A DNA stretch of 64,000 nt. It comes from an uncultured Clostridium sp. GTDB lineage: Bacteria > Bacillota > Clostridia > TANB77 > CAG-508. The notes beneath the pieces are model-generated. The model was not told the origin of the DNA and searched no databases. It saw only the letters and a list, made by a program, of their open reading frames with translations. Made by a program: the position numbers and the translations under genes. Shown here piece after piece: positions 3,146 through 63,903 of the stretch. The DNA is taken from contig USEX01000001.1 in the NCBI GenBank assembly GCA_900553755.1, positions 29,463 to 93,462 of the forward strand, written 5' to 3'. Every line of letters begins with the position of its first letter. Within the stretch, counting starts at the first letter, position 1.

Positions 3146-3146
3146 T

Positions 3147-31400: not shown

Positions 31401-34400
31401 TATTTCATTTGCTTGAATGTCTTTTGGCATAACCTTTTTCAAACTATCTACATTGATTTGAAATTCTGGATGTGTCAAAGCAAATTCTTCAGCTATTTTC
31501 AATTTTTCTCTTACATTTCCTGATAAATATTCATCGGAAGTATAGAATGTACCTCTATGAAGCGGGTCTTCATAAATTACTCCTTCAAGTTCTTTTATTA
31601 TTGTTTCTTTATCTTTATTAGTTAATTCAGACATATAATCTAAATCAACTCTTGCTTTTTCTGACATTGAAACAATTAATGCTTCATCGCTTGTCGAAAC
31701 CTCTTTAATTTCCTTATACGGCTTAATTGTTCTTTTTGTAAACATATCTGCTTTTCGTACAAATTTTCCTTCGCCATCTAACACTTCTAAAGAACATAAA
31801 AGAAAATAACTACTATCCTCAGAAAAGGCTAAATTATTTCCTCTACTATTAATTAGTCCGTATTGTTTTACAAAATTATCATACAATCTATTTAATCTTA
31901 ATTGCTCTTGTTTTATATTTTCTTCAGGATAATCCTCTGTCTGCATATCTATTAGTGTTCTAACGCAATCTCGAAGTTCTATCATTCCTTTTATTCTATT
32001 TACAGAAGTAACAGGGAGTTCTTGTAAATACATTTTACTATTTTCTCTAAAATATATATTTCCATCTTTTATTGTATAAGAAAAATTTCTAACACTTGGA
32101 TCAGCATTAATAAATTTTTCATCTTCTTCTATATCATCTATTTCATATTCACTAATTTCAGCATGAATATTAGTTATTGCATAGTCTAATTGATTTTCAA
32201 GAGGTATATCATTATTGGGAATACATGTTGAATCTAATCCATATTGTGTAGTTTTCATTTCCATTGTTCCTAAAACCATTTCAGGGTTATCTACAAAGTA
32301 CTTATTCATTTTTATTCCATTATCATTAGTATCAAGATAAACCCAATCTGGTTCATTATTTGTCATATTTTCTCTTTTTTGTAGAAATAAAATGTCAGAT
32401 GTTACCTCCGTACCTGCATTCTTAGAAAATGTGTTGTTGGGTAATCTAATTGCACCAAGCAAATCAGCTCTTTGTGCTATATATCTTCTTACAGTGGGAT
32501 TTTCCTTATCCATTGTTCCTTTTGAAGTTATAAATGCAATTATTCCTCCAGGTCTTACCTTATCTAAAGTTTTTCCAAAGAAATAATCATGAATTAAAAA
32601 ATTGTTTTTGTCGTATTTTTTGTCATGTATTTTAAAATCTCCGAACGGAACATTGCCAACAGCAACATCAAAGAAACTATCTGGCAAATCAACTTTTTCA
32701 TAACCATTAATAGTAATATTTGATTTTTGATATAATTGTCTAGCAATTCTTCCTGATATAGGATCTACTTCTATTCCATACAATTTACTTTCATTCATAG
32801 AATCAGGAATACTACCTAAGAAGTTTCCTGTACCACAACTAGGCTCTAGTATATTAGCATTCTTTACTCCCATATTTTCAAGTGCTTTATATATAGATTT
32901 AATTACTATTGGTGGTGTATAAAAAGCTGTCAATGTTGACGCTCTCGCATTTTTATATTCTTCTTCAGAAAGTAAATCCTTTAAAACTTTATATTCATTT
33001 GACCAGTTTGAGTCTTTATCATCAAATGCTTTTGCAAGTCCACCCCATCCAACATATTTAGATAAAATTTCTTGTTCTTCTTTAGTTGCTAGTCTATTTT
33101 CATCTTCGCATTTTTTTAGAACTTTTATAGCCTCAATATTATTTGAAAATCTTTCTCTTGGTGTACCCACTCCTAAATTATCATCAGTTATTTTGTAATT
33201 TATTCTGTCTATATTAGATATTTCTGGTGAACTATTATAAGTTTCTCTTTTATTTTCTTTTGTATCAAATTTTGGCTCTATAATATTTGATTTTTTTATT
33301 TCATCAATTATTTCATTAAAATCTTGTTGCAATTCCTCATTATTGTCTTCTGCACTTTTAACTTGTTCTAGATAATCTATAAGTTCTTCTTTTCCATCTA
33401 AATCTTCTTTTACTTGTTCAATTGTATTTTCTTCTCTATCAAAGATATCGTACTTATTTTCTAAATCAAGTAGTTTTTCATCTAAAGATTTATTTTCAAT
33501 AGTTGTCTCTTTTTCTTCTGCCTTTTCTCTTGTCTTATATAAGTGTGAGTTCGAAGGATTTTCTTTTATTATTTTTTCAAATTCTTCAATTGACATTTCT
33601 CTGCCTAGTAATGGAAATTTCAAATCATAAAGTTGAACATTCATTACACCAATATTAGATATTTCATAGCTATCACTGCCAATATAAACTATATCTCCTA
33701 GATGGTAATCTAAAACTTTTTCAACTGGTATTTCTTTAATACTTTCTATTTTTTCTTTAGCATCATTATCTAACCATGCAAGGTATTCATCAAATTCTTT
33801 AGAATTTAAGTATCTGTCTGCTAAAATTAACTCTTTTAATCTTTTTTCTACATAGTTCCATGTCAATAATTTTTCTGGTCTATCATCTTTAAATCCTTTA
33901 TATAATAAAATTCCCTTACTATCATGTTGTTGTCCAAAATCTGCGTAACTATATGCTGCACTTGAGCCACCAATACCATATTCATGTTTAAGAAAATCAA
34001 TATTTTCTTTTGCTGACATGCTTGAAGTCATTTGTCTAAATATTCTAAATTTTCCCTTTGCAAATCCACTACCATTTTGCAAAGTTCTGTCTATCATTTC
34101 TTGTGTGAATTCAAAAATAGCAGGTATATCATTATTTGATATATCTGCTATTTTTTGCTTTTGTTCTTCTTCTGATATTAAATTTAATTGTAGATTAGTT
34201 CCTGAATTGTTATCTCCTCTGCCATATTCCTTAAATTGTTCATTATCTGAACCCACTTCATTTGGTCTTGTGCTTTCATTTCTTCTGTTATATTCGCTTT
34301 TTTCATTAAATCTTTCATTATTGTTTCTATTCGTTCTGTCGCCGATTTTTGAATTTCTACTAGATGACTTGTAAGTTCGTTTTTCATTAGTAAAGCCATA

Positions 34401-35369: not shown

Positions 35370-35371
35370 TA

Positions 35372-35626
35372 TCATTCCTCCTTTCCTTTATTTCCTGAAA
35401 AAAATTCTATAATCCCATTTTTTATATTTCTTCTTTTATTTGTTTTATAGTTTTCTTCAATAACAACCTTAAAATCCATTATTAAACTTTTCTCAAAAGG
35501 GGAAAAATCTCCAATGGAGTCTAAATCTTGCCATTTTATATTAATCAATTTTTCAGTTGTATTGATGTTATATTTAAATAATTTTTCTAAAGTTTTTGTT
35601 ATATCATTCATCTTATAAACTGCCAT
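35372..35626 (-). CDS. Hypothetical protein (84 aa), translationally coupled upstream of the giant gene
   Basis: Its stop overlaps the giant-gene start. RBS AAGGAGG is upstream. Confidence 0.4.
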   Translation of the reverse strand: MAVYKMNDITKTLEKLFKYNINTTEKLINIKWQDLDSIGDFSPFEKSLIMDFKVVIEENYKTNKRRNIKNGIIEFFSGNKGKEE

Positions 35627-40909: not shown

Positions 40910-41860
40910 CTATCTTTCCAAAGCTCTTTTTTTGGCTCTTTCTCTCTGATTATGTTCTTGTACACACATAAATATAAAGTCTTCTTTTTCCTGATTAGTT
41001 TTTATATTTTTGGGAAACTCAGCTTCAAATCTATCTGCATTAAATTTCAACTTTTCAATTTGATTTGGCTTTTCTTGACTCATTAATTCTTCAATTTTAT
41101 CAGCGTCCAATTTTCCTTCTTGTTCTAGTTTTTTCATGTGTATTGCTTGTGCTAAGCTTGGAGTAATATCAGAAAATTGCATAACATCTAATAATACATA
41201 TTGATTATCTTCACTTAGATAGGATATTTCAACGGCAGGTCTAAATGCTATTTTCTTTTCATCAACCATGTCTAAAATTTCTGGTATCAGTTCAGTTAGT
41301 CTTATGTATCTTCTAATTTGCTCTCTGCTTTCTCCTGATTCTTCAGCTATCCTTTCTCTTGAAGTCATATTATCAGACTTCTGCACCACTGGTGCCGAAG
41401 TTAAATCTTTTCTTTCTCCTTGTCTTTTTATTGCTTCTAATTTCATTTTGTAAGCAAAAGCCTTTTCACTTGGCAATACTTCTTCTCTTTGATTTTCATT
41501 ACTATCTACCATTAGAATTGTAGCTTCTTCATCTGTTAAGTCCTTAATAATAGCAAGTATATCTTCTTTTCCTGCTAATTCACTTGCTCTTTTTCTTCTA
41601 TGACCTGAAATCATTTCATATCTTCCATTTTCCTTTTTTCGAACTATAACTGGTTGTGAAACACCATATTCTTTAATGCTTTCGCTTAATTCTTGCATTT
41701 TTTCGTTATCAACAACTTTATAGGGATGGTTAGGAAAATCATCTATTTCACTTAATGGTATTGGTATAACATATTCTTCTGCATCTCTTTCAGTTTGTGT
41801 TGTAAACAAATCATCTAGCGATATCTTTGGTAATTCCATTCTTTTGTCTTTGTCTGTCAT
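40910..41860 (-). CDS. parB: ParB/Spo0J-family partition protein
   Basis: The ParB N-domain box is VIVRKKENGRYEMISGHRRKRASELAG. The likely start is MTDKDK at 41860, with RBS AGGAGGTG upstream. Confidence 0.8.
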   Translation of the reverse strand: MTDKDKRMELPKISLDDLFTTQTERDAEEYVIPIPLSEIDDFPNHPYKVVDNEKMQELSESIKEYGVSQPVIVRKKENGRYEMISGHRRKRASELAGKEDILAIIKDLTDEEATILMVDSNENQREEVLPSEKAFAYKMKLEAIKRQGERKDLTSAPVVQKSDNMTSRERIAEESGESREQIRRYIRLTELIPEILDMVDEKKIAFRPAVEISYLSEDNQYVLLDVMQFSDITPSLAQAIHMKKLEQEGKLDADKIEELMSQEKPNQIEKLKFNADRFEAEFPKNIKTNQEKEDFIFMCVQEHNQRERAKKRALER

Positions 41861-42638
41861 CTGCCAACACCTCCTTTGCAAATTCTTCATAAGCAGTTGC
41901 TACTTTACTATTCTTGTCATATTTAAATATACTTTTACCTCTTGATGTAGATTCTGCCGTTTTAACTGCAAGTGGTATTTGAGAGTTATATAATTTTATT
42001 GCCTTTCCATAAGTTTCTTTTAAATCTTGTATGGTTTCTTTTGATAAATTTGTTCTACTATTAACTAATGTAAGCAGAATTCCTCCAACTTCTAAACCTG
42101 GATTTATTGTTCTTTTAACTCTTGAAACAGTCTTTAACAAGTGTCCCATTCCTTTTGCGGCAAGAAAGTGGTCTTGTACTGGAATAATAACTTTATCACT
42201 ACAAGCTAGAGCATTAATAGTTAGCATTCCAAGAGAAGGCATACAATCAATTAAAATATAATCATAATCTTTTTTTACATCACTCAAAATCGTTCTAATT
42301 GTTATTTCTCTACTCATTGCATTTACGAGCATTGCTTCTGTTGCTGAAAGGTCTAAATCTGAAGGTATTAAGTCTATACCTTCATTATTCTTTAAAATCG
42401 CTTGTCTTGTATCAAGTTGTGAATCATAAATTACTGATTCCATTAGTTGAGCTAATGTAGTTTTTAATTCACTTTCATTATATCCCATATATGTAGTTAA
42501 GTCTCCCTGTGGATCAGCATCTACAACTAAAACTTTTTTGCCTTGATTTTTCAGTGCAACACCTAAGTTAAATGTTGTTGTAGTTTTACCAACTCCACCT
42601 TTTTGATTAGCAATTGCTATAACCTTACAATCAGACAT
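41811..42638 (-). CDS. parA: ParA/Soj-family partition ATPase
   Basis: It has the deviant Walker A KVIAIANQKGGVGKTTTTFNLG and is 275 aa. Confidence 0.85.
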   Translation of the reverse strand: MSDCKVIAIANQKGGVGKTTTTFNLGVALKNQGKKVLVVDADPQGDLTTYMGYNESELKTTLAQLMESVIYDSQLDTRQAILKNNEGIDLIPSDLDLSATEAMLVNAMSREITIRTILSDVKKDYDYILIDCMPSLGMLTINALACSDKVIIPVQDHFLAAKGMGHLLKTVSRVKRTINPGLEVGGILLTLVNSRTNLSKETIQDLKETYGKAIKLYNSQIPLAVKTAESTSRGKSIFKYDKNSKVATAYEEFAKEVLADDRQRQKNGITKDIAR

Positions 42639-51156: not shown

Positions 51157-52389
51157 TTAATTATTTTTTTCATCAATTAACCAATCCAATACATTTATCT
51201 TCTTTATTCCATCAAAGTCTGCATCTAAATCATCATCTAATGTCAAAATGTATTTAGGATAATTATCATTTATTTTCCTCAATGGAGTTAATTCTCTATC
51301 TAAAATTTTATTATCTCCTTCATTTTCTCCTCTAGTTGTTAATGCAACTTGATAATATATAGTATTTTCTGGCTTTCTTGCTACGAAATCAACTTCTAAA
51401 TCATCATATTTTCCTATATATACTTCATATCCTCGTCTCAACAATTCAAGATACACAACATTTTCTAATATATGCCCCATATCTCGACCAGAGCCTTGTC
51501 CTAACATATAATATCTTAATCCTATATCTATTACATAATATTTTTCTTGAGTTTTTAAAAACTCTTTTCTTTTAATATCATATCTGTTGGCTTTAAATAC
51601 TAAATAGCTATCTATTAATGCATCTACATAGTTTGAAATTGTATTATATGATGGATTTTTATCTATTCCTTCAATATTATCACTTATGCTTTTCATACTT
51701 GTTCTATTTCCTATGTTGTCATACAAATATTTTGTAACTCTTTCTAAGACATTCTTATCTGTTATTCCCTTTCTTTGCATTACATCTTTAAATAAAATAG
51801 TATTATATATTCCATCTAAAAATAAATTTATATTTTCTGGGTTTATTTTATATAATTGGGCTGCTTGAGGAAATGAACTATATCTTAGATAATCTCTAAA
51901 TTTTCTTGACAAGTCTGTTTTATCTTCAAAGCTTGATAAATATTCTTTAAACGATAATGGTAACATTTTTATTTCTATATATCTTCCTGTAAGCAATGTT
52001 GCTAATTCTGAAGATAATAAATATGCATTTGAACCTGTTATATATAAGTCTACATCTTTATTTATAAATAAACTATCTACTGTTTTTTCAAATTCGTTTA
52101 CATTTTGAATTTCATCTAGAAAAACGTATGTCTTTTTTCCTTTTACTAATCTTTCTTTTATATATTCATATAATTTTTTTCTGTCTTGTAATTCCTCATA
52201 ATCTGCGTTTTCAAAATTTATTGATATTATTTGCTTTGCTTCTACTCCATTTTCTTTTAAGTAATCTTGAAAAATTTCAAGTAATGTTGATTTCCCACAT
52301 CTTCTTATTCCTGTGATAACTTTTATTATTTGTTGATCTTTGAAATTTTTTAATATAGATAAATAATTTTCTCTACTTATTATTTCCAT
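51157..52389 (-). CDS. AAA+ ATPase with C-terminal DUF4143-type domain
   Basis: Walker A is VITGIRRCGKSTLLE and Walker B is YVFLDEIQNV. The likely start is MEIISRENYL at 52389 (RBS AGGAGGAG). The tracked ORF is longer. Confidence 0.75.
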   Translation of the reverse strand: MEIISRENYLSILKNFKDQQIIKVITGIRRCGKSTLLEIFQDYLKENGVEAKQIISINFENADYEELQDRKKLYEYIKERLVKGKKTYVFLDEIQNVNEFEKTVDSLFINKDVDLYITGSNAYLLSSELATLLTGRYIEIKMLPLSFKEYLSSFEDKTDLSRKFRDYLRYSSFPQAAQLYKINPENINLFLDGIYNTILFKDVMQRKGITDKNVLERVTKYLYDNIGNRTSMKSISDNIEGIDKNPSYNTISNYVDALIDSYLVFKANRYDIKRKEFLKTQEKYYVIDIGLRYYMLGQGSGRDMGHILENVVYLELLRRGYEVYIGKYDDLEVDFVARKPENTIYYQVALTTRGENEGDNKILDRELTPLRKINDNYPKYILTLDDDLDADFDGIKKINVLDWLIDEKNN

Positions 52390-52673
52390 AAATCTCCTCC
52401 TAACTATAATAATTATACTATCTTTTATTATTATAGTCAAGTTCTTTCAAAATTATGAAAAAACTTTTGATTTTTCAGTAGTTTTTTCAAATGGCTCCTA
52501 TGTAATTTTTTTTAAAAGTAATAAAAATAAAGGAAATATCAATGTTTTTGAGATTTTTTCTCAAATTTTATTGATATTCCCTATTATTTTTTACTTGATT
52601 ATGTATCGAAGTTTTATCTGTCTATATACAAATAATTCAAACTTCTGCATAACGTTTCGTTATTATTCGTATT

Positions 52674-53063
52674 TTATAACACATATTTAGATATAAGCGA
52701 ATTTATCATTCTTATATCAACATTTGATTTAAAATCAAATTGTAATATATGTCCATTACTAAATGTAAGGATTAGTTCGCTATCTATATCCATAAAACCC
52801 GCTGTTTCTATTCCATAATACTGTATTTTTGAATACGGATATGAAAAATATGCAATTTTTTTACCTGTGACTCCCTTTACATTCACAACAAAAATTCTAT
52901 TATTAGTAAATATAACCTGATCTCTAATAGTTTTAAATGCACACATTATTTTTTCACTATCTACTAATAATTTCTCAATTTCTGGTCGTACTTCTTTTAT
53001 TTCTATAGCTTTTAAGTTTAAAAAATTAGAATCTAAATTAATTCCTGTAGAAATATTTGGCAT
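52674..53063 (-). CDS. Bacterial PH-domain (bPH/YokE-like) protein
   Basis: It is 129 aa, with the segment DQVIFTNNRIFVVNVKG...ELILTFSNGHILQFDF. Confidence 0.4.
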   Translation of the reverse strand: MPNISTGINLDSNFLNLKAIEIKEVRPEIEKLLVDSEKIMCAFKTIRDQVIFTNNRIFVVNVKGVTGKKIAYFSYPYSKIQYYGIETAGFMDIDSELILTFSNGHILQFDFKSNVDIRMINSLISKYVL

Positions 53064-53177: not shown

Positions 53178-53948
53178 TTATTCAAATATACTTTCATATT
53201 CTAATGGTACAATATTTTCATATAATAAAGTAAACTGTGAATTTACTTGCTTATAATCATGATAATGTCCAAAATACCATCTTTTAAATGTGCATTTTTC
53301 TGAAATCTGCTGTAAATAGTCAGTTAAAACATCTCTTTTATATGTTGAATTTATTAATGCTTGTACATTTGTTGGGCAACAATGAGATATGATGTAATCT
53401 ACTTTGTAATTTATTTTTTCTAGATTTTTTATTCCATTTTCCATTTCTTGCTTTGTGGGAAGCTCTAAATCCCACCATGAAAAATCTCTAATTCTAAAAT
53501 ATGCTCCTCTTTTACGATACTCATATATTTTTTCTTCTTCATCTAAATTCAATATTCCATCTTGAATATCATGCGATTTAGCACCACCAAAAGCAAATAT
53601 TTTTTTATTATCAATATCAAAAATTTCTCCTCTCATTAAGTGTAATACTAAATCTCTTATCTTGTGTACTTTTCCACCTTTCCATTCTTCAATTGGATGA
53701 TTATATAATCTTGTATAATTTTCATAATTTCCATCTACAAACAATGTGGTAAAATTTTTATTGTCTAACCAATCTAGTAGCTCTTTTTCTCTGCTACTCT
53801 CTTCTTCAAATGTCCATACTCCACCAAAATCTCCACATATTATTACATAATCATCTTCCGTCATTTCTGATTGTATTGGAAATTTTTCTTCGGTAAATCG
53901 TTGAAAATCACTATGTGTATCGCCTGTAATGTATATCATAATTCTCAC
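53178..53948 (-). CDS. Calcineurin-like metallophosphoesterase
   Basis: The motifs YITGDTHSD, ICGDFGGVW, VDGNYENY and GHYHDY are present (GDxH / GDxxD / GNHE-like / GHxH). Confidence 0.8.
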   Translation of the reverse strand: MRIMIYITGDTHSDFQRFTEEKFPIQSEMTEDDYVIICGDFGGVWTFEEESSREKELLDWLDNKNFTTLFVDGNYENYTRLYNHPIEEWKGGKVHKIRDLVLHLMRGEIFDIDNKKIFAFGGAKSHDIQDGILNLDEEEKIYEYRKRGAYFRIRDFSWWDLELPTKQEMENGIKNLEKINYKVDYIISHCCPTNVQALINSTYKRDVLTDYLQQISEKCTFKRWYFGHYHDYKQVNSQFTLLYENIVPLEYESIFE

Positions 53949-53954
53949 CTTCTT

Positions 53955-54455
53955 TTAGAATTCTTCATTAGAGTAGTCTTTTCCAAATCTACTTGGAGTA
54001 AAATACTTAACTTCTCCCTTATCATTTACTGAAAAGATATGTAAACACAAAATTTCTGCTATTTCCTTTGGTATTCTTCTTAATGCAACTTGTGCTGATT
54101 CCCAATATAGTCCTAATCCATATTTATATGCATGATTTATTCCTGATATTTTTCCATCTGTTTTGGACATAGAATATCTTTTTACATCCATTCTTGTTAT
54201 TATTTGCCCTAAAGCATTTAGCCATCCCTCTCTATTGATTGACTTAGCAGATTTTGCATAGGATTTGCCTTTACACTCAATATAAAAATATTCACTATTT
54301 CTTTTACCACCAACTAATTTTATATCAACACCATGTTGATGTAATTCACTCTTTTTTACTTTTTCTTCATGCCAATTACCATTTTCTTTATTTATCATAA
54401 ATTCTATGATTTTGTCTACAATAAATTGTTCTGTGATTTTTTCATTCATTTGCAT
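53955..54455 (-). CDS. Small PD-(D/E)xK nuclease-fold protein (166 aa)
   Basis: It has the motif GVDIKLV ... EYFYIECKGK (D-x15-E-x-K). It lies 17 nt downstream of hsdR and 6 nt upstream of the phosphoesterase. Confidence 0.5.
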   Translation of the reverse strand: MQMNEKITEQFIVDKIIEFMINKENGNWHEEKVKKSELHQHGVDIKLVGGKRNSEYFYIECKGKSYAKSAKSINREGWLNALGQIITRMDVKRYSMSKTDGKISGINHAYKYGLGLYWESAQVALRRIPKEIAEILCLHIFSVNDKGEVKYFTPSRFGKDYSNEEF

Positions 54456-54472
54456 TAATCCCCTTTTATATA

Positions 54473-57400
54473 TTAGTTTTCTTCAATCATTCCTTTGCAT
54501 TGTAATTCTGCTTGTCTAATAACTAATTGAACTGCTGAATCTCTTTTAACTGGTGGATAATCATATTTTATTAATAGTTTTTTTATTTCATATCTCATTC
54601 TAGCTCTAGCATCTTTTCTAATATCCCAATCTATTGTCATATTTGAATTTATTGTATCTACTAATTCTTTTGCTATTTTTACTAAAGTTTCATCTTTCAT
54701 CAATTCTTTAACCTGAGGATCATTGCCTAATGCATCAAAAAAGGCTTTTTCTTCAACTGATAAATTATATTCATTTCCTGCTGCTAGTTCTTTTTCAATT
54801 TCGTTTTTTAGATTTATCATTTCTTGTATTATTTTTTCTATATCTTCTACACTTGTTCTTTCATTGTATGCTGTTGCTATTTTTTGAAATTTTGTAGAGA
54901 ATTTTTCTTGCATAACAATATTTTGTATTCCCACTTTTTCAACATAATCTTTTAATGCCTGATTCAAGATTTCTACTGCAATGTTCTTTTTTTGCATTTT
55001 TGCTATTTTATTCATCAATTCATCACTTAGAAGCATTATTCTATTACTATTTTGTACTTTTCCAATTTGTAACATTTCATCATCTTGGATTGCTCTTTCA
55101 AGCATTTTTCCAACATGTTCGTTAATTTCTTTGCTATCTATTGTATTTCCACTATTGCTTAACTTTTTTATAAATGATCTAACTGAAATAAAAAATAATA
55201 TTTCATCCTTTATTTCTTGTGTTAGTTCTCCTGCACATAATGAATATAAATTTTTACAATCATAACTATATTTTAAAAATTCTTTCTTAGTCTTTTCATC
55301 TTTTAAAACCCAATCTGCTCCTGCCATAATTATTTCATACTTATCACTATCTGTTGTTGTAGCAAAATGGCTATATATAAATCCATGAAATATATTTCTT
55401 ATTAATTCGATTTTGTCCATTAAAACTTTAACAATTTCCGTATTGTCTACTACGTTTCCTTGATCACGTTTTGTATAAGTCTTTAATGCATCTATTAACC
55501 ATCTTTTTAATCCAATATAATCTACAATTAGTCCTCCCTGTTTGTCTTTAAATACTCTATTTACTCTTGCTATTGCTTGCATTAAGTTATGTGCTTTCAT
55601 TGGCTTGTCTACATACATTGTCCCTAGTGATGGTACATCAAATCCAGTAAGCCACATATCCACAACAATTGCAATTTTGAATTCCGAATTATAATCTTTA
55701 AAGTCTTTTTCAAGTTGATGTTTATCTTTTGAAGAGCCAATTGCTTTTTGCATTTCTTCATCATCTTTATTATTTGATGTTATTACCATATGTATTTTAT
55801 TTTTCCATTCTGGCTTTAATTCTAAAAATTTTTTATACATTGTATATGCTGTTCTTCTTGAGTAAGCAACAACCATTGCTTTATTTGCAACTGTATTTTC
55901 AATATCACTATAATTTTTTATAATATCTTTTACTATAAGTTCTAATCTATCTGGATCTTCAATAATTTCTTGCATTTTTGCCATTTCTTTTTTAGATTCA
56001 TTTAATGTTTCTTCATCTACACCTTCATCCTTTTCAAGATATGTGTAATAATCGTCTATCTCATCTAATATCTTTTGGTTTAATCCAACTCTTGCCATCC
56101 TTGCTTCATACATAATCGGTACTGTTGCGCCATCGAGAATTGCTTGAGTCATATCATATGTATCTATTACATTTCCGAAAATTTCTGATGTTGACTTATC
56201 TTTTGTTTCGACTGGGGTACCTGTAAATCCAATATAAGTAGCATTTGGAAATGCTGTATGTAAATATTTTGCAGTTCCGTATTTTTTATATGCTATCATT
56301 TTTTCTTTATCAAATTTCATTGTAGCATCTATGCCGTAATGACTTCTATGTGCTTCATCAACTAAAACTAAAATATCATCTCTTTTACTAAATACTCCTG
56401 TTTCTTCTTCAAATTTTTGTAATGTTGTAAAAAATATTCCTCCTGATATTCTATTATCAAGCTTCTCATTTAAATCTGTCCTACTCTCAATTTGCACTGG
56501 TTTTTGTTTTAGAAATTCTGAACACTGTGAAAATGTATTGAATAATTGATCATCTAAATCATTTCTATCTGTAACTACAACAATACTTGGATTTTTTAAT
56601 ATTTTTATCATATTTGCTGAATAGAACACCATAGAAAAACTTTTACCTGATCCTTGTGTATGCCATAATATTCCTGCTTTTCCTGTTCTTTCGTTATAAG
56701 CTTTTTCTGTGCTTTTAATTGCTTTTTTTACACCAAAATATTGATGATATGCTGCTAAAATTTTATTATCTCCACTCCACATTATAAAGTTATTTATAAT
56801 GTCCATTATTCTGTCTTTTCTCATCATTCCATTAAATAATGTATTATGTGTTGCCATATTTTCTTTTACAACATCTGTATCTTCAATCTTTTTCCATTCT
56901 GAAAATCTACTCCATGGACTTGTTATAGTTCCTGCTCTTGCTTGTACACCATCACTCACTATTAAAAATTGATTATAATAAAATAATGTTGGAATATGTA
57001 CATTTTGATATCCTTTTAACTGGTTATATCCATCTTCTAATTTTACTTCTTCTCTCGTTGTGCTTTTTAATTCAATAACTACTAGGGGCATTCCATTAAT
57101 AAACACAATTATATCAGGACGTTTTTCACTTTCTTCAATAATTGTATATTGATTAATTGCTTTAAATGTATTTATTTCTATATTATTAAAATCAATTACT
57201 TTTATTGTTTTGTATCTAGTTGTTCCATCTTCTTGAATTGGAACTTTTATTCCTTCTAATAAATACTGTGTAAATTGTTTATTGTTTAATATTGTATTAT
57301 TATTGTCCAAATTCTTTATTAAACGGATAACTTCTTTAATATCTTCATTTGTAATATTTTTATTTAATTTTGTTATCGCTCTTTCTAAGTCATCATCTAG

Positions 57401-57511
57401 TATTACATTTGAATAATTTTCTCTTTCTAATTCATATCCATTTAATGTTTCATATCCTAAGTTTGTTAATAATTCCATTGTTATTTTTTCTAGTGTTGCT
57501 TCATCAAACAT
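54473..57511 (-). CDS. hsdR: Type I restriction enzyme R subunit
   Basis: It is 1012 aa with Walker A ILWHTQGSGKSFSMVF and DEAH box LVLVDEAHRSHYG. The nuclease motif region is VVIELKSTTRE. Confidence 0.9.
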   Translation of the reverse strand: MFDEATLEKITMELLTNLGYETLNGYELERENYSNVILDDDLERAITKLNKNITNEDIKEVIRLIKNLDNNNTILNNKQFTQYLLEGIKVPIQEDGTTRYKTIKVIDFNNIEINTFKAINQYTIIEESEKRPDIIVFINGMPLVVIELKSTTREEVKLEDGYNQLKGYQNVHIPTLFYYNQFLIVSDGVQARAGTITSPWSRFSEWKKIEDTDVVKENMATHNTLFNGMMRKDRIMDIINNFIMWSGDNKILAAYHQYFGVKKAIKSTEKAYNERTGKAGILWHTQGSGKSFSMVFYSANMIKILKNPSIVVVTDRNDLDDQLFNTFSQCSEFLKQKPVQIESRTDLNEKLDNRISGGIFFTTLQKFEEETGVFSKRDDILVLVDEAHRSHYGIDATMKFDKEKMIAYKKYGTAKYLHTAFPNATYIGFTGTPVETKDKSTSEIFGNVIDTYDMTQAILDGATVPIMYEARMARVGLNQKILDEIDDYYTYLEKDEGVDEETLNESKKEMAKMQEIIEDPDRLELIVKDIIKNYSDIENTVANKAMVVAYSRRTAYTMYKKFLELKPEWKNKIHMVITSNNKDDEEMQKAIGSSKDKHQLEKDFKDYNSEFKIAIVVDMWLTGFDVPSLGTMYVDKPMKAHNLMQAIARVNRVFKDKQGGLIVDYIGLKRWLIDALKTYTKRDQGNVVDNTEIVKVLMDKIELIRNIFHGFIYSHFATTTDSDKYEIIMAGADWVLKDEKTKKEFLKYSYDCKNLYSLCAGELTQEIKDEILFFISVRSFIKKLSNSGNTIDSKEINEHVGKMLERAIQDDEMLQIGKVQNSNRIMLLSDELMNKIAKMQKKNIAVEILNQALKDYVEKVGIQNIVMQEKFSTKFQKIATAYNERTSVEDIEKIIQEMINLKNEIEKELAAGNEYNLSVEEKAFFDALGNDPQVKELMKDETLVKIAKELVDTINSNMTIDWDIRKDARARMRYEIKKLLIKYDYPPVKRDSAVQLVIRQAELQCKGMIEEN

Positions 57512-57606
57512 AATTTGCCCCCTAAATTATATTATTTTATTACTATATTTATACTTTTTTCAGTTTTTCATTATTATATACTGCTTATTTGTCCATTTTT
57601 AATCAT

Positions 57607-57700
57607 ACAAATAGTAATTTGTATGATTATATTTCTATTTTATCTAAGTCTATTTCTCCACTCATAAGTTTTGGTAGTAATGCATCTCTTAACTGTGTTA
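57607..57700. repeat. ~94-bp repeat copy A at 3' end of hsdS1 (direct repeat of 59876-59969), includes 12-bp palindrome AATCATACAAATagtaATTTGTATGATT
   Basis: The first 73 bp are identical to the second copy and the remainder is about 85% identical. Confidence 0.85.
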
Positions 57701-58811
57701 ATGATTGATTTTGTTCACTATTTAAAATCATTTTGCTATAAATTGGATTACATTTTTCATAAAATGTCTCTAATTCATCTTCTTTAGGAATTGGAATTTC
57801 AATATTTTCAATATCTGATGTGCTAATATTAGGTTGAGCACTACCATATCCTTTTGAATTTAGCGTATTTTGCATATCCTCTAATAGAAATAAACAATTT
57901 AAATATAATTCACTATATTTATCATTTCCTCTTATAACACCAACACGTTGATTTAAGAAATATCTATAATCTTGTCCATATAAATATCCTGTTTTTCCTA
58001 ATTCAGCCCCTGTCATTGCTATAATTACATTACCTCTTAATAGTAAAAACTTTTTGTCTACTTTGTCAGCCACTTCATCATATACACATTGAGTATTATC
58101 TATATCAACTCCGCTTGCACTTATGTTTTTTATTTTTAAAATTTTGTTGTTTGTAGTCTCATTTAGTAAATCTTTACCTTTAAATGCGTAACCACCTTGA
58201 ATTTTTCCTATATCATTAACATTCCCATTTCGCACAAATTCATTATTATAATAATGTTCCTTAATATATTGTTCTAAAATCTTGTACAAATTATCATTTG
58301 TTTTATTATTTAATCCAATTTTATTATCTATATTATTTAATATTTTTACAATTTTATCTTGAATATTTCTAGCTGGTAAATCTATTTCTATATTTTCAAA
58401 AGTTGATTTATTAAGTATTGGCATTGTTGATCCGCCAGCGATTCCTTTTAAATATTCTTTTTTATCACTAAAATAATAATATAAATAGTGAGGATTGCAT
58501 ATATCTTTAATATCTGTTATAGAATTGATTTGCTGATTTGTAATTCCTGGTCTATTAATCATATATACCTTTCCCATATCAGAGCCTATACAACTGATAC
58601 ATACACTATCTTTTTTAATTATTTGTGATTTAAATTTATCTTCTACAAAAGATGTTAAATATCGTTCCGTGCTCTCTATATATTTGCAATTATCTTTCAT
58701 ATCCCTTGGAGTAACAAACAAATACTTATCAGCTAGTTCTGAAAAATTTTCAAGTTGTTTAGTTGATGGAGTTTTTCCAGTTACAATTTTACCTATATCT
58801 TTTAATTTCAT
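57627..58811 (-). CDS. hsdS: Type I R-M specificity subunit (full length, two TRDs)
   Basis: It is 394 aa with the central conserved KTNDNLYKILEQ and the C-terminal LRDALLPKLMSGEIDLDKIEI. Confidence 0.85.
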   Translation of the reverse strand: MKLKDIGKIVTGKTPSTKQLENFSELADKYLFVTPRDMKDNCKYIESTERYLTSFVEDKFKSQIIKKDSVCISCIGSDMGKVYMINRPGITNQQINSITDIKDICNPHYLYYYFSDKKEYLKGIAGGSTMPILNKSTFENIEIDLPARNIQDKIVKILNNIDNKIGLNNKTNDNLYKILEQYIKEHYYNNEFVRNGNVNDIGKIQGGYAFKGKDLLNETTNNKILKIKNISASGVDIDNTQCVYDEVADKVDKKFLLLRGNVIIAMTGAELGKTGYLYGQDYRYFLNQRVGVIRGNDKYSELYLNCLFLLEDMQNTLNSKGYGSAQPNISTSDIENIEIPIPKEDELETFYEKCNPIYSKMILNSEQNQSLTQLRDALLPKLMSGEIDLDKIEI

Positions 58812-58822
58812 AAAACTTTCTC

Positions 58823-59824
58823 CTATCCTATATACTTTCTATGTGATATTTTCACATTATTTTGATTTACCATTGCATAATGCATAGTTGTCTCTATTTT
58901 TACATGTCCTAATAATTTTTGTACTTGTTCTATTGGCATACCTTTATCAATTGCCATTGTTGCTAGTGTTCTTCTAAATTTATGTGGATGAACTTTATTT
59001 ATTTCTGTTTCTAATCCTATTTTTCTAACTATCAATTCAATTCCAGCAATTGATAGTCTTTGGTACGGCTTATTTTTCGAAACAAATAATGCTTCATTCT
59101 CATCTTGTCGAGTGTTTATGTATTGTTTTAGATGTATTTTTGTTCTTGCATCAAAATATACTTCTCTTTGCTTATTTCCTTTTCCAAATGCTTTACAAGA
59201 TCGATCTTCAAAATTAATATCTGAAATATTCAATTTTATTAATTCTCCAACTCTTATTCCCGTTGAATATAATAATTCAATTAATACTAAATCTCTAATA
59301 CAATTACTTGTATCTCGTAATTTTTCAAGATTTTCATCTGTTAAAGTTTCTTTTATTATTGTTGGTGTTTTTACCTTATGTATTCTTCTAACGGGACTCT
59401 TTATAATATAGTCTTCATCCTCTAACCAAGCAAAAAAACTAGATAAAACTCTTCTTAAATTATCAATAGTTACTGCATTACATTTTGTATTTTCTTTGTA
59501 ATCTGCTAAATATTTCCTGATTTCTTCTGTTTGAATCTCTTTAATTGGCTTATCTATTGTATTTATTAATTTCTCGATGATTTCTCTGTAGTATTTTAAA
59601 GTTCTAGTTGAACAACCCTCTACTTCTTTTGCAGAAAGAAAAATATTTATATAATTATCATTGGTTTCTTTTATCTGTTGTTTTTCTTTTTCATCAGTTA
59701 AAATATTTATTTCAACTTTTTTTAAATTATTCTCAAGTGTTTCTTTTAATTTTTCTAATTGATATTGAGTTAATACAAGTGCCATATCATTTGTAATGTT
59801 AATAATTATGTCTGTTTTAATCAT
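58823..59824 (-). CDS. Tyrosine site-specific recombinase (phage-integrase family) embedded in hsdS locus
   Basis: The catalytic C-terminus is HPHKFRRTLATMA ... LLGHVKIETTMHYAMV (R, HxxR and Y present). It is 333 aa. Confidence 0.85.
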   Translation of the reverse strand: MIKTDIIINITNDMALVLTQYQLEKLKETLENNLKKVEINILTDEKEKQQIKETNDNYINIFLSAKEVEGCSTRTLKYYREIIEKLINTIDKPIKEIQTEEIRKYLADYKENTKCNAVTIDNLRRVLSSFFAWLEDEDYIIKSPVRRIHKVKTPTIIKETLTDENLEKLRDTSNCIRDLVLIELLYSTGIRVGELIKLNISDINFEDRSCKAFGKGNKQREVYFDARTKIHLKQYINTRQDENEALFVSKNKPYQRLSIAGIELIVRKIGLETEINKVHPHKFRRTLATMAIDKGMPIEQVQKLLGHVKIETTMHYAMVNQNNVKISHRKYIG

Positions 59825-59875
59825 ATAATATTCCTCCTCTAAAGAATATTATATCATTTTATGTAAATTAGTTAA

Positions 59876-59969
59876 ACAAATAGTAATTTGTATGATTATA
59901 TTTCTATTTTATCTAAGTCTATTTCTCCACTCATAAGTTTTGGTAGTAGTGTATCTCTTAATTGCTCTA
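59876..59969. repeat. ~94-bp repeat copy B at 3' end of hsdS half-cassette
   Basis: It matches 57607-57700 in the same orientation. Confidence 0.85.
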
Positions 59970-60483
59970 ATGTTTCATTTTGAGAAATATTTAAAAAATA
60001 CTTATTTTGTATTTGTTTTGCAATGTTATTGTATTCTTTTAAAATAGCATCACTTGGAACTTTAACAATAATGTCTTTAATATTGTCAATCGTTATTTGT
60101 GGTTGTGCAGAACCGGTTGTATACGAATAATAAGGATTTAATAATGATAATTCTTTTAGATAAAAATAATACTTTCTATCACATTCTAATATCAATGAAT
60201 TATTAGTAACAAAGCAGTTTGGCTTTGTAAATATGACTTTGCCTGATGCTGCACCTCTACATGAAACAAGAACTTGCGATTCATCATACATTTTTTCTTT
60301 ATAAAACCCTATAATCCCGTTACCACCATACACTGGATAACCTTCTGATAATATATTCTTTGTTGGTAGTCCTTTTCCGTATTTAATATTACAAAATTCT
60401 TTTAAAGTTAATTCTTTAATGTAATTATTTTTATTATTATCATTAAAATATTTAAAAAATAACTGTTTAGACAATTCTAACAA
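59896..60483 (-). CDS. hsdS: hsdS half-cassette (central conserved region + TRD + conserved C-terminus); TTG-initiated or silent
   Basis: The frame reads TNDNL-LELSKQLFFKYF ... LRDTLLPKLMSGEIDLDKIEI. The last 18 residues are near-identical to hsdS1. Confidence 0.7.
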   Translation of the reverse strand: MLELSKQLFFKYFNDNNKNNYIKELTLKEFCNIKYGKGLPTKNILSEGYPVYGGNGIIGFYKEKMYDESQVLVSCRGAASGKVIFTKPNCFVTNNSLILECDRKYYFYLKELSLLNPYYSYTTGSAQPQITIDNIKDIIVKVPSDAILKEYNNIAKQIQNKYFLNISQNETLEQLRDTLLPKLMSGEIDLDKIEI

Positions 60484-60535
60484 ATTATCATTTGTTTAAT
60501 TCTTAAGCCACATTATATAACAAATTATCATTTGT
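60480..60535. repeat. 17-bp direct repeat aacaaattatcatttgt x2 flanking a 23-bp spacer (40-bp frameshifting insertion in hsdS2); a third copy lies at 58286-58301 in hsdS1
   Basis: Each copy encodes the conserved central TNDNL. The upstream half reads TNDNL-LYNVA-stop and the downstream half reads TNDNL-LELSKQ in a different frame. Confidence 0.8.
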
Positions 60536-61018
60536 CTGAATATTTAATTCTATTTTTTTATCAATATCAAATAATACTTTTGATATTTTCTTTTGCTGCG
60601 ATTTATCAAAATCTAGAATCTCTATATTTTCCAATTCTTTTCTATTTATAGAATCAAATACTGTTCCAGTAGATTTCATTTTAATTTCTTTTATAGAATT
60701 TTTCAGCAAATAATATAAATATTGATTATTACCATCTTTCATTTCTATTGAACATAGACCTCTGCCAATACATATGTCTTTATTAGCTATATTCAAATCC
60801 CCTACCGGAGCTCTTACACTCATTAATACTGAATTTTTTTTCCCAATTTTTTTTGGTTCTGTTGTCCAAGTATCAATTGTTGGATATAAAAAATTAAAAG
60901 TTTTATTCCCCTGTAAAAAAGGAATCCCTCTTCCATTATTATTGTAAGAACTTCCACTTGGAGATTGTCCCATATTAATATCTGCTATTTCCTTTAATTT
61001 AATTTTATTAAACTGCAT
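60503..61018 (-). CDS. hsdS: hsdS half-cassette (N-terminal TRD + central conserved region), truncated by stop after TNDNLLYNVA
   Basis: It starts MQFNKIKLKEIADINMGQSP, which is typical of an HsdS N-terminus, and ends IDKKIELNIQTNDNLLYNVA. The tracked ORF extends to 61075. Confidence 0.7.
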   Translation of the reverse strand: MQFNKIKLKEIADINMGQSPSGSSYNNNGRGIPFLQGNKTFNFLYPTIDTWTTEPKKIGKKNSVLMSVRAPVGDLNIANKDICIGRGLCSIEMKDGNNQYLYYLLKNSIKEIKMKSTGTVFDSINRKELENIEILDFDKSQQKKISKVLFDIDKKIELNIQTNDNLLYNVA

Positions 61019-61043
61019 TTTATACCTACCTTTTTTGATTATT

Positions 61044-61970
61044 CTACCACTGAAATATAATTTCATCACTTTCATTTGTAACTTTTATAAATTCTTTTGT
61101 TTCATCTAAAATAACATTAATATTTTTTCTATCTTCTAGTTTACATTTTATTATAACAACGTTGTTATCTTCGCATTCTTCAAATTTAATATTTTTTATT
61201 CTTACTATTGATTTTCCTAATGCATTACTAATTTTTTCTGAAAAATACTCTGTTCTTGAAAACTCTATATACTCAGATAAATCCCTTAAATTGTATTCTT
61301 TACAGATAAAATCAACAATATCTGTATCGTTCTTTGCACTTGTAGCTTTACCTCTTCTTTCTTTTATTTCATCATTCCAATTTAAGCCATTAAATATATT
61401 ATCATTAGTCGCAATTATATATTCAGAATTTTCTTTCTCCATCTTTTCTTTAATACTTTCTAATATAACAACATCTTTAAATCCAGCATCACTAAATTTT
61501 TTGTTATTAGTTCCTCCAAAAAAGAATGGTCTCTTCTTTTGAATAGCTCTTTCTATAATGGGATAAAATTTATCTTTGCTTGGATATGATAAAACTTCCA
61601 TATATTCTTTCTCTTTTGAAATATATTTATTGAAATTCGGCTTTAAATAATCCTCGTACTCTTTTACATTAGAATATCTATTTCTAATAATATTAATGTC
61701 ATATCCAACTTTTACAATATCTGATTTTATTGAATTATACCCATCATCTAAATTATCTAACTTTTCTTGTATATTTTTGTACTCTTCAATATAATGTTTA
61801 TATATTTCATCCAATACTATTTGTGGAATAATTATTTTAAAATTATTATAACCATTATATGTAATAAATTTTTTTAATCTAGCATATACATTATTAAATT
61901 TAAATTCAAATAATTTCTTGTTTTGAATTTCTATTACATTTGTATCCAAAAATATATTTACTTTTCTCAT
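61044..61970 (-). CDS. PIN-like domain protein (308 aa) between hsdM and hsdS
   Basis: The N-terminal NIFLDTNVI, KDVVILESI and IIATNDNIF segments carry the acidic residues of a PIN/DUF4935-like fold. Its start overlaps the hsdM stop (ATGA). Confidence 0.45.
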   Translation of the reverse strand: MRKVNIFLDTNVIEIQNKKLFEFKFNNVYARLKKFITYNGYNNFKIIIPQIVLDEIYKHYIEEYKNIQEKLDNLDDGYNSIKSDIVKVGYDINIIRNRYSNVKEYEDYLKPNFNKYISKEKEYMEVLSYPSKDKFYPIIERAIQKKRPFFFGGTNNKKFSDAGFKDVVILESIKEKMEKENSEYIIATNDNIFNGLNWNDEIKERRGKATSAKNDTDIVDFICKEYNLRDLSEYIEFSRTEYFSEKISNALGKSIVRIKNIKFEECEDNNVVIIKCKLEDRKNINVILDETKEFIKVTNESDEIIFQW

Positions 61971-63484
61971 ATTTCATATCCTATTGCTTTCAAATTGTTT
62001 TTTATTTCTTCATCTAGTTTTGCACTCTCTTGCATTTGCTCTGTCAATTTTGATGTTAAGTCTTTCATTTTCTCTTCAAAAGGCATACCATCGTCTTCAA
62101 CTTCCTTTGTTCCAACATATCTTCCTGGTGTTAAGACATAGTTGTTTTCTTTTATTTCAGAAATATCAGCTACTTTGCAAAATCCTGCAATATCTTCGTA
62201 ATTTACATTATTAATAAAATGATGATATGTACTTGAAATTTTATTAATATCTTCATCAGAAAGTTCTCTTAACTTTCTTGTAACCATATTTCCCATTTCT
62301 CTTGCATCAATAAATAATGTTTTTTCAGTTTGCTTTTTATTTCTATTTATAATCCAAATACTACAAGGAATTGTAACTGTATAAAATAAATTTGATGGCA
62401 TTGCTAAAATACAATCTACTAGATCTGCTTCTAATATATTTTTTCTTATTTCTCCCTCTCCTGAGGTATCAGAAGATAATGCTCCATTTGCTAATATTAT
62501 TGCTGCTTTACCATTTATTGATAATTTATCTATCATATGTTCTACCCATGCCATATTGGCATTTCCTTTAGGTGGTATTCCATACTTCCATCTTGGGTCT
62601 TGCAATAATTTTTCTTGTCCCCAATCACTTATATTAAATGGTGGATTTGCTAAAATAAAATCGGCTTTTAATCCTTTATGTAAATCATTTTGAAATGTGT
62701 CATCTGCAAATTTTCCAATATCACCATTTAAACTTCTAATTGCTAAGTTCATTTTTGCTAATTTCCATGTGGTTGGATTCTTTTCTTGTCCATATATTGC
62801 TAAATCTTGTACTTTCCCTTGATGTCTTTCAATAAATTTTGTACTTTGTACAAACATTCCTCCTGATCCACAACATGGATCATATATTCTTCCTTTATAT
62901 GGCTCTATCATTTCTACCATTGTTCTAACAAGACATGCCGGAGTATAGAATTCTCCACCTTTTTGTAATTCTTTTGCTGCAAATTCTCCTAAGAAGTATT
63001 CATATATTCTTCCTAAAATATCTTTATCTTGAGCTTCTTTACTTCCAATTTTTATATTTGTAAATAAATCTATTAATTCTCCAAGATTTACGTTTCTATA
63101 ATCTGGGCTGTTATACTCTTTTATTAATACTCCCTTTAATGATGGATTTTCTTTTTCTATTTCATCAAGTGCTTCGTCTATATATTGTCCTATATTTGCA
63201 TCTTTAGAATGTGCATTTAAATATTCCCATCTTGCTTTAGCTGGAACATAAAAGATATTATCCATTGTATATGAATCTCTATCTTCTTCCATTCCATCTC
63301 CATTTTCAACTAATTGGCGATATCTTTCTTCAAATGCATCAGATATATATTTTAAAAATATTAATCCCAATATTATAAATTTATAACTAGATACTGGAAC
63401 TGCTCCTCTCATTTTATCAGCTGCAGCATATAATTTTTTTTCTAGTTCTTGTAACTCTTCTTCACTATTCATTTTATCCTCCAA
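61967..63484 (-). CDS. hsdM: Type I R-M N6-adenine methyltransferase
   Basis: It is 505 aa with motif IV ILANPPFNISDW and motif I YDPCCGSGGMFV. The HsdM_N region is present. Confidence 0.9.
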   Translation of the reverse strand: MEDKMNSEEELQELEKKLYAAADKMRGAVPVSSYKFIILGLIFLKYISDAFEERYRQLVENGDGMEEDRDSYTMDNIFYVPAKARWEYLNAHSKDANIGQYIDEALDEIEKENPSLKGVLIKEYNSPDYRNVNLGELIDLFTNIKIGSKEAQDKDILGRIYEYFLGEFAAKELQKGGEFYTPACLVRTMVEMIEPYKGRIYDPCCGSGGMFVQSTKFIERHQGKVQDLAIYGQEKNPTTWKLAKMNLAIRSLNGDIGKFADDTFQNDLHKGLKADFILANPPFNISDWGQEKLLQDPRWKYGIPPKGNANMAWVEHMIDKLSINGKAAIILANGALSSDTSGEGEIRKNILEADLVDCILAMPSNLFYTVTIPCSIWIINRNKKQTEKTLFIDAREMGNMVTRKLRELSDEDINKISSTYHHFINNVNYEDIAGFCKVADISEIKENNYVLTPGRYVGTKEVEDDGMPFEEKMKDLTSKLTEQMQESAKLDEEIKNNLKAIGYEI

Positions 63485-63597: not shown

Positions 63598-63903
63598 TTA
63601 CCACTTATTTTGTAACTCATTAATTACATTCCATACCTTTCCTATTTCTTGTTTCACCTCACTTAAATCCACAGTATAAATCCTTCCACTATTCGACAAA
63701 TACGTTAATTGATTTATATTATTTCCTATCCTTCTAAATTCTGATACAACTTCATTTAATCCATCAACTATAACTATCTCTTTATCTAAACCTTGTTCAA
63801 TCAAATATTCTGATAAACTTAGTTTAGCAATTTTGCTTTTCTCAATCAATCCGCTCTTCTCTTTTTCACTAACTCTAATTGTTATAATTTTATCTTTCTT
63901 CAA
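63598..63903 (-). CDS. mobC: Second MobC-like RHH relaxosome accessory protein
   Basis: It has an RHH-like IITIRVSEKEKSGLI and the MobC motif IGNNINQLTYLSN (compare IGNNLNQIAHKAN at 22521-22835). It is 101 aa. Confidence 0.65.
   Translation of the reverse strand: MKKDKIITIRVSEKEKSGLIEKSKIAKLSLSEYLIEQGLDKEIVIVDGLNEVVSEFRRIGNNINQLTYLSNSGRIYTVDLSEVKQEIGKVWNVINELQNKW

Follow-up and report, generated by a model that had tools for sequence, protein, structure and literature searches.

The stretch analysed here (the window: 64,000 nt of contig USEX01000001.1, assembly GCA_900553755.1, positions 29,463 to 93,462, from an uncultured Clostridium sp.) carries a Type I restriction-modification (R-M) locus in which hsdM, hsdS and hsdR are complete and the gene of a tyrosine recombinase sits between two hsdS regions. 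This locus probably shuffles its specificity modules by site-specific excision and reintegration, that is, by recombinase-mediated cassette exchange in cis. Its target sequence would most likely be changed by cutting out and re-inserting the segments between direct repeats, a rare but known mechanism. An earlier reading made from the letters alone (the sequence-only reading) had proposed a recombinase-associated, specificity-switching Type I locus, and this proposal is borne out by near-isogenic relatives that carry four predicted arrangements of the modules.

Every gene of the R-M locus lies on the minus strand, in the order hsdM, a PIN_12-domain gene, a split hsdS, the tyrosine recombinase, a full hsdS and hsdR. 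The same layout had been given by the sequence-only reading, and both the coordinates and the Pfam matches, which back each gene assignment, agree with it. The features are listed below in that order; N and C stand for the N-terminal modules and the C-terminal cassettes of hsdS, which carry the target recognition domains (TRDs).

61967..63484, minus strand: hsdM, Type I methyltransferase subunit, 505 aa (Pfam HsdM_N and N6_Mtase, E 3e-110)
61044..61970, minus strand: PIN_12-domain gene, 308 aa, between hsdM and the upstream hsdS (Pfam PF16289, E 3e-19)
ATG 61018, stop 60503, minus strand: N-half of the upstream hsdS (Pfam Methylase_S)
60536..61018, minus strand: module N1, N-terminal TRD of the upstream hsdS, with a fixed position beside hsdM/PIN (Pfam Methylase_S)
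60520..60535, minus strand: coreM-1, proposed recombinase site, exact 16-mer
60496..60519, minus strand: stop stuffer, 24 nt, tatataatgtggcttaagaattaa, reading L-Y-N-V-A-stop in the hsdS frame
60480..60495, minus strand: coreM-2, exact 16-mer
60483..59896, minus strand: C-half of the upstream hsdS (Pfam Methylase_S)
59892..60479, minus strand: cassette C1, C-terminal TRD and conserved C-terminus, stop codon at 59896-59898 (Pfam Methylase_S)
59876..59891, minus strand: coreT-1, 4 nt past the upstream hsdS stop
59848..59875, minus strand: promoter-like site directly after coreT-1, TTAACT-16-TATAAT with an upstream TG (consensus match only)
58823..59824, minus strand: Xer-like tyrosine recombinase, 333 aa (Pfam Phage_integrase and SAM_4; NCBIfam NF040815)
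58811..57627, minus strand: full-length downstream hsdS (hsdS1, N2-C2; Pfam)
58302..58811, minus strand: module N2, N-terminal TRD of the downstream hsdS, predicted to travel with the recombinase gene (Pfam)
58286..58301, minus strand: coreM-3, exact 16-mer
57623..58285, minus strand: cassette C2, C-terminal TRD, stop codon at 57627-57629 (97% identical copies in relatives)
57607..57622, minus strand: coreT-2, within a 30-nt palindrome, TAATCATACAAATTACTATTTGTATGATTA
54473..57511, minus strand: hsdR, restriction subunit, 1012 aa (Pfam HSDR_N, SWI2_SNF2, T1R_D3-like and T1RH-like_C)

The central repeat of the hsdS genes is an exact 16-mer, coreM (ACAAAT-GATA-ATTTGT; ACAAATGATAATTTGT on the minus strand), which encodes TNDNL and occurs in three mid-gene copies, coreM-1 and coreM-2 being 40 bp apart. 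A second 16-mer, coreT (ACAAAT-TACT-ATTTGT; ACAAATTACTATTTGT), is found in two copies, each 4 nt past an hsdS stop codon. The two cores have the perfect inverted arms ACAAAT/ATTTGT in common, and their asymmetric 4-nt spacers are GATA and TACT respectively. The pattern ACAAAT-N4-ATTTGT has six matches in the window, where 0.06 would be expected by chance, and five of the six lie inside the R-M locus; the sole match outside it (30763-30778, ACAAATAAGGATTTGT), within the gene of a 2318-aa SNF2-type protein, is probably a chance match. According to the sequence-only reading all repeats have the same orientation. This holds for the three coreM and the two coreT copies and, because all of them are direct, inversion is not the mechanism. 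The central and terminal conserved repeats that it described are also present, in three and two copies, but the functional units would be the 16-bp cores and not the 17-bp and ~94-bp segments that it delimited. The terminal repeat (TER) extends over 129 nt with 88% identity (57599-57727 vs 59868-59996) and includes an exact block of 73 nt (57607-57679 = 59876-59948), in which the identity stops right at the 3' edge of coreT. The palindrome that surrounds coreT-2 between the stop of hsdS1 and hsdR (57600-57629) has 13-bp arms (TAATCATACAAAT-TACT-ATTTGTATGATTA), and its right-hand extension is missing from coreT-1; it could modulate read-through into hsdR or the binding of the recombinase.

When aligned to the XerA-like structure 4a8e, the recombinase shows all the catalytic residues (R, K, H-x-x-R, H and Y). 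It is 60% identical over residues 2-333 to the recombinase of Streptococcus suis 10581 (L040) and has many homologues at 92-100% identity, and the contigs encoding four of these were looked up. The relatives compared here are loci (L numbers) from human-gut metagenome contigs, all of them short-read assemblies. The promoter-like sequence upstream of the recombinase is kept in all of them; in the window, no gene lies between coreT-1 and the recombinase.

One set of relatives is the P0028 group, the recombinase of which is 96% identical to that of the window. Within this group the modules N3, N4, C3 and C4 differ by 0-2 nt and the flanks (2 kb on the left, 2.5 kb on the right) are 99.95-100% identical, and yet all four predicted arrangements are present. 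They are listed below, where a double slash stands for the 40-bp interrupter, Rec for the recombinase, and the numbers of contigs take in similar places beyond the ten loci shown.

N3-C3, Rec, N4//C4: L082, L084, L086, L087 and L091 (~8 contigs)
N3-C4, Rec, N4//C3: L083 and L090 (~11 contigs)
N3//C3, Rec, N4-C4: L085 and L088 (~2 contigs)
N3//C4, Rec, N4-C3: L089 (~1 contig)

In this group the N modules are stationary, the C cassettes exchange places and the interrupter switches from one gene to the other. The same grammar, coreM, C cassette, coreT, recombinase plus N module, coreM, (stuffer, coreM), C cassette and coreT, is kept in the P0002, P0008, P0020 and P0024 groups and in eight further contigs picked out by a scan for the doublet. 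The modules of the window itself have close copies in other contexts. A C2-like cassette (97%) precedes the recombinase in L107/L108 and follows it in L105/L106, module N2 is 99.2% identical in L092/L093/L095 and, in L131/L132, the PIN_12 gene and N1 (96.5% identical) are fused straight to a C cassette, the stuffer being found in the downstream hsdS.

Part of this diversity might be an artefact of short-read assembly across repeats, since many contigs end at the cores and some loci with zero or two stuffers or with tandem units (L093, L094, L097, L098, L105 and L115) are possibly mis-joined. Nevertheless, assemblies made with k=55-141 are not confused by a 16-bp repeat unless the alternative junctions are real, and each of the four states requires junction k-mers that exist only if the DNA has that junction. 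In addition, all ten P0028 loci shown have each module once and exactly one stuffer, in independent samples and with different assemblers. It is thus very improbable that the arrangements were created by the assemblers. The contig ends are themselves informative. Many recombinase contigs are only ~1.6 kb long and span coreT to coreM; L101, from a k=141 assembly, reaches exactly 125 nt past both cores (125 + 16 = 141) and L102 reaches 61 nt past both (61 + 16 = 77). Such lengths are to be expected when the assembly graph branches at the cores. As a 16-bp repeat alone cannot break these assemblies, and a break needs one flank to be connected to two different partners in the reads, this indicates co-existing arrangements within one sample, a mixture that may consist of phase variants or of co-resident strains alike.

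The relatives also help to delimit the exchanges. Distinct combinations of left and right flanks around invariant cores amount to 41 for coreM and 19 for coreT, so that the exchanges are confined to the 16 bp. One possibility is that the rearrangements are real but result from general homologous recombination, unequal crossing-over, gene conversion or exchange between strains after horizontal transfer, and not from the embedded recombinase. The TER, with its 73 nt of perfect identity, would be a suitable substrate, the C cassettes S7, S11 and S14 recur in lineages with different recombinase alleles, a sign of some horizontal exchange, and the long repeats of the pneumococcal tvr and ivr loci recombine without the locus recombinase (PMC6265443; PMC10790761). 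Yet the mid-gene exchanges in the relatives are limited to a 16-bp core with unrelated flanks. Such a length is far under the usual minimum for RecA-dependent exchange. Moreover, in the relatives with extra genes in their C cassettes the sequence shared at the T-side junction is limited to the 16-bp coreT, which also rules out the 94-bp C-terminal coding repeat as the crossover site; the arms are conserved across lineages while the spacers co-vary with the type of site; and the homologous S. suis enzyme is needed for switching at 14-bp sites. Recombination independent of the embedded enzyme is for these reasons unlikely as the source of the arrangements, and gene conversion between TRDs, which the sequence-only reading had offered, is not needed to explain the observed variants.

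The core sites of tyrosine recombinases have conserved arms, and their spacers are constant within one type of site. The cores of the relatives follow the same rule: in a lineage with recombinases 71-74% identical to that of the window, the arms are kept and the spacers are AATA in the M sites and TGTT or AGTT in the T sites. Since none of the ~50 loci parsed contains the product of an M x T exchange, coreM and coreT would be heterospecific sites, each of which exchanges only with its own type (M x M or T x T).

These observations lead to the following scenario. The Xer-like recombinase would bind the arms ACAAAT/ATTTGT common to coreM and coreT, and the different spacers would limit exchange to M x M and T x T, thereby keeping the N and C modules in register. 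A T x T exchange between direct sites would release a circle of 2269 bp and an M x M exchange a circle of 2194 or 2234 bp, each of them carrying the recombinase gene, its putative promoter and N2. Excision at one class of site followed by reintegration at the other would swap C1 and C2, and recombination at the two coreM copies on either side of the stuffer would shift the 40-bp unit of stuffer and coreM between the hsdS genes. The four predicted states are N1//C1 with N2-C2 (the state of the window), N1-C1 with N2//C2, N1-C2 with N2//C1 and N1//C2 with N2-C1; with one intact HsdS in each, four methylation and restriction specificities would result. The proposed steps would yield exactly the four states of the P0028 group. 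Circular intermediates and a dependence on the recombinase are predicted, the latter with indirect evidence from the 60% identical XerD of SsuCC20p, and from the relatives and the intact parts of the locus we infer that the switch would be active in this strain too.

The upstream hsdS had been taken by the sequence-only reading for spare half-cassettes, but it is a full second hsdS gene, broken by a stop element of 40 bp that is conserved and mobile. This unit consists of the 24-nt stuffer and an extra coreM, and its computed removal gives an uninterrupted open reading frame (ORF) for a 360-aa HsdS with no other lesion; therefore, both hsdS genes of the locus are complete, although one is interrupted. 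C1 is in frame with both N1 and N2, and the four combinations of N1/N2 with C1/C2 are all in frame (360, 385, 394 and 369 aa). Over dozens of loci the stuffer (24/25 nt) is nearly invariant and occupies differing positions; its consensus in the close group is TTATATAATGTGGCTTAA[T/G]AATTAA, with one variant ending in CAATCAG. Short in-frame stop stuffers between doubled cores, with a spacing of ~40-46 bp, are also found in L003, L004, L005, L007 and L025, lineages in which the recombinases are 65-74% identical to that of the window. The idea that the 40-bp insert is the scar of a deleted cassette was considered and is countered by its conservation and mobility. A TATAAT inside the stuffer is a suggestion only, the promoter scan being at chance level.

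Most complete loci have one stuffer. Those with zero (L098, L100) or two (L097, L105, L117), like the loci with tandem recombinase-hsdS units, may reflect intermolecular events or assembly chimeras. The stop in the stuffer would silence one hsdS, so that each state makes a single full-length HsdS; silencing of this kind would bring the specificities to four, one per state, in place of two states that each have two. Intramolecular excision by tyrosine recombinases needs a longer spacing between sites than is found here, and the 40 bp that separate the flanking cores probably protect the stuffer from direct excision. The strongest version of this scenario, in which coreM-stuffer-coreM is a purpose-built mobile stop cassette, and the locus a four-state cis exchange switch that makes exactly one HsdS and is protected by heterospecific sites and short spacing, seems to us to have an even chance of being right.

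A static, decayed locus would offer another interpretation: the upstream hsdS would be a pseudogene that a 40-bp tandem duplication broke by chance, the recombinase would be a leftover or serve another element, and only hsdS1 would work. A single arrangement is indeed known for this strain, and there are mobile-element genes nearby (the NikA-like gene at 63598-63903 and a conjugative element at ~2-42 kb). Such decay is difficult to reconcile with a stuffer that is nearly invariant at differing positions in dozens of loci, with five exact cores and an intact recombinase, with the clean ORF obtained by removing the 40 bp and with the four arrangements of the isogenic relatives, and we regard it as quite unlikely.

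Several points nevertheless weigh against a switch by excision and reintegration. The exact N2-C2 hsdS is found in its own contig only: an exact-protein look-up of the window recombinase and hsdS1 returned nothing beyond that contig (JGI 3300013900 Ga0117820_1000004), and a megablast of the 10-kb locus against a plasmid collection gave zero matches. As the comparative loci are short-read metagenome assemblies, the paths with zero or two stuffers or tandem units could be chimeric, and the different samples may hold fixed strain variants instead of switching populations. The cores, 16 bp each (two 6-bp arms around 4 nt), are on the small side for sites of a tyrosine recombinase. The scan for promoters and terminators is at chance level (48 sites vs 52.5 in shuffles), Pfam and PADLOC reveal no toxin-antitoxin pair beside the recombinase, unlike in tvr, and the 73-nt identity of the TER could allow exchange without the recombinase, which has been reported for tvr.

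The mechanism had been called non-canonical in the sequence-only reading, but direct-repeat excision and reintegration have already been published for tvr/SpnIV. There, the recombinase was shown experimentally to excise a circle between direct repeats, the reintegration of which shuffles the TRDs, and two direct-repeat classes with a common core were described (Kwun et al. 2018, PMC6265443). Other direct-repeat loci were noted by Huang et al. 2020 (PMC7672463), where TvrR corresponds to clade 2; as to the window recombinase, the distribution of its homologues over phyla is ambiguous between the PsrA and TvrR clades. The locus of the window appears to work like tvr/SpnIV and to be related by descent to the systems of the SsuCC20p type. 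It has in common with tvr the order hsdM, hsdS region, recombinase, hsdS region and hsdR, the combination of a short mid-gene repeat (the MPR of tvr, ~18 bp) with a tail-end repeat (the TER of tvr, ~70 bp), all of them direct, the fixed N-terminal TRD beside hsdM and the four arrangements, which in the window too would be reached through a recombinase-carrying circle excised and reintegrated elsewhere. There are also differences. In tvr a TvrAT (Phd/Doc) pair and an attenuator accompany the recombinase, and the window locus has neither; the family of the window always has a 2+2 organization, while tvr has 2+1, 3+1 or 2+2; and what lies between the doubled mid-gene sites is a 24-nt stop stuffer here but a whole N-terminal TRD in tvr. 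Unlike in tvr, the M and T cores of the window have identical arms and different spacers, and the host is a gut bacterium with a low GC content (27%).

The second comparison is provided by SsuCC20p, in which switching requires the xerD of the locus and takes place at 14-bp sites, TAAATGATGATTTA (PMC10790761). The 14-bp inverted repeats published for it, TAAATCATCATTTA and TAAATGATGATTTA, occur mid-gene and past the stop in the locus of S. suis 10581 (L040), and this locus is SsuCC20p. Both systems have palindromic arms around an asymmetric 4-nt spacer (TAAAT-GATG-ATTTA in SsuCC20p and ACAAAT-GATA-ATTTGT in the window), sites located mid-gene and just past the stop, and two hsdS regions that flank the recombinase, the hsdS genes on both sides in SsuCC20p contributing to methylation (PMC10790761); coreM (CAAATGATAATTTG) and the SsuCC20p repeats are clearly one kind of site. 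In SsuCC20p, however, one site sequence occurs in inverted pairs with opposed C-terminal TRDs, resulting in inversions or double exchanges, whereas in the window all modules and sites are direct, the post-stop spacer has diverged and a stop stuffer is present. Mixed orientations of hsdS are also seen at the loci of other members of the recombinase family (L023, L040 and L053). In L066, TAAATGATAATTTA is paired with its exact inverse, TAAATTATCATTTA, and the coreT spacer TACT has two mismatches to TATC, the inverse of the coreM spacer. The direct-repeat family seems to have derived from SsuCC20p-like invertons by the flipping of the modules and the mutation of the post-stop spacer from TATC to TACT, which would have made the sites incompatible.

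Inverton shufflons, such as ivr/SpnIII with CreX/PsrA, the hsd loci of Mycoplasma pulmonis and those of Bacteroides fragilis (PMC7672463), resemble the window locus in having a locus recombinase, mid-gene and terminal repeats and a variable Type I specificity. Their repeats are inverted and their silent partial hsdS genes oppositely oriented, only the copy at the expression site being complete; the window locus has all hsdS parts and cores on one strand and no inverted part, and a movable in-frame stop would do the silencing. A further analogy is found in engineering: cassette exchange with heterospecific lox or FRT sites relies on identical arms and incompatible spacers, and keeps orientation and register. 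It is an analogy only, as the window system is natural, acts in cis and is predicted to use a recombinase-carrying circle. Heterospecific 16-bp cores and a mobile stop stuffer appear to be undescribed, as no description of them was met in the literature searched.

Until now, experimental proof of Type I switching by excision and reintegration has come only from the pneumococcal tvr. The family of the window locus, which human-gut metagenomes often contain and which seems widespread in Firmicutes of the human gut, has natural isogenic variants that show every predicted state, and this suggests that the mechanism reaches beyond one pathogen. It also suggests that excision-reintegration can arise in a recombinase family that drives inversions as well, and that a tiny movable stop can be added to enforce one specificity at a time. 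If this is true, it would bear on how gut bacteria are screened for epigenetic heterogeneity and for heterogeneity in phage defence, as tools based on inverted repeats and short-read assemblies would miss such loci; the locus would also provide a small natural model on which cassette exchange with 16-bp sites could be built.

Some relatives carry cargo genes between the hsdS stop and coreT in their C cassettes: a 221-aa gene, a pair of 130 aa and 72 aa, a 167-aa gene and a DUF6173 gene (positions L097 4259-4924, L116 4296-4929, L115 4425-4928 and L092 7208-7603). They move with the cassette between both positions (L098 vs L099/L100; L116 vs L119). Pfam gave nothing convincing on them except DUF6173, and they could be addiction or defence genes. 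Identical or near-identical C cassettes are associated with different recombinase alleles and N modules (S7 in L094, L126, L131 and L132; S11 in L097-L100 and L126; S14 in L105-L107 and L132), as if strains drew on and exchanged one pool of cassettes, besides the shuffling within genomes. Tandem duplications of the unit C cassette, coreT, recombinase, N module and coreM, with two recombinases, are found in L093 (2022-7634), L094 (2085-7676) and L115 (871-7760); they could result from amplification by integration of an excised circle or from an assembler looping twice around a graph cycle, and are in this sense compatible with circles but ambiguous.

The PIN_12 gene lies outside every excisable segment and had zero matches in PADLOC and NCBIfam. 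Among the relatives compared it is seen only in L131/L132, as a copy with 95% nucleotide identity, and it is missing from most of them: there hsdM overlaps hsdS directly, while in L116/L117 an unrelated 169-aa gene occupies the same place. This position is a variable accessory slot.

The DNA of the window has 26-29% GC, and all but two of its ORFs of at least 200 aa lie on one strand. It also holds rho, prfA and the conjugative element, and the NikA/MobC-like gene (63598-63903) adjoins the R-M locus. The conjugative element fills much of the window (1976-42638) and includes a second Type I pair, made up of an HsdM-like protein of 855 aa (3147-5714) and an HsdS of 401 aa (1976-3181), with neither hsdR nor a recombinase seen adjacent. 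Its other genes are the following.

7612-9102: Y-family polymerase
12006-13652: CHAP-domain protein
13668-14420: sortase
14417-16750: VirB4/TraG-like ATPase
18370-20187: Type IV coupling protein
21151-22521: relaxase
23443-24429: Toprim/DUF3991 protein
28419-35375: SNF2-type helicase protein, 2318 aa
35676-39974: SpaA-repeat adhesin
40910-41890: ParB

Just downstream of hsdR, the genes between 51157 and 54455 look like a defence island.

51157-52440: AAA_14/DUF4143 ATPase, a strong match to the PADLOC candidate PDC-S01 (E 1e-153)
52674-53063: bPH_1 protein
53178-53948: metallophosphatase-like gene, a weak match to PDC-S10
53955-54455: unannotated 166-aa gene

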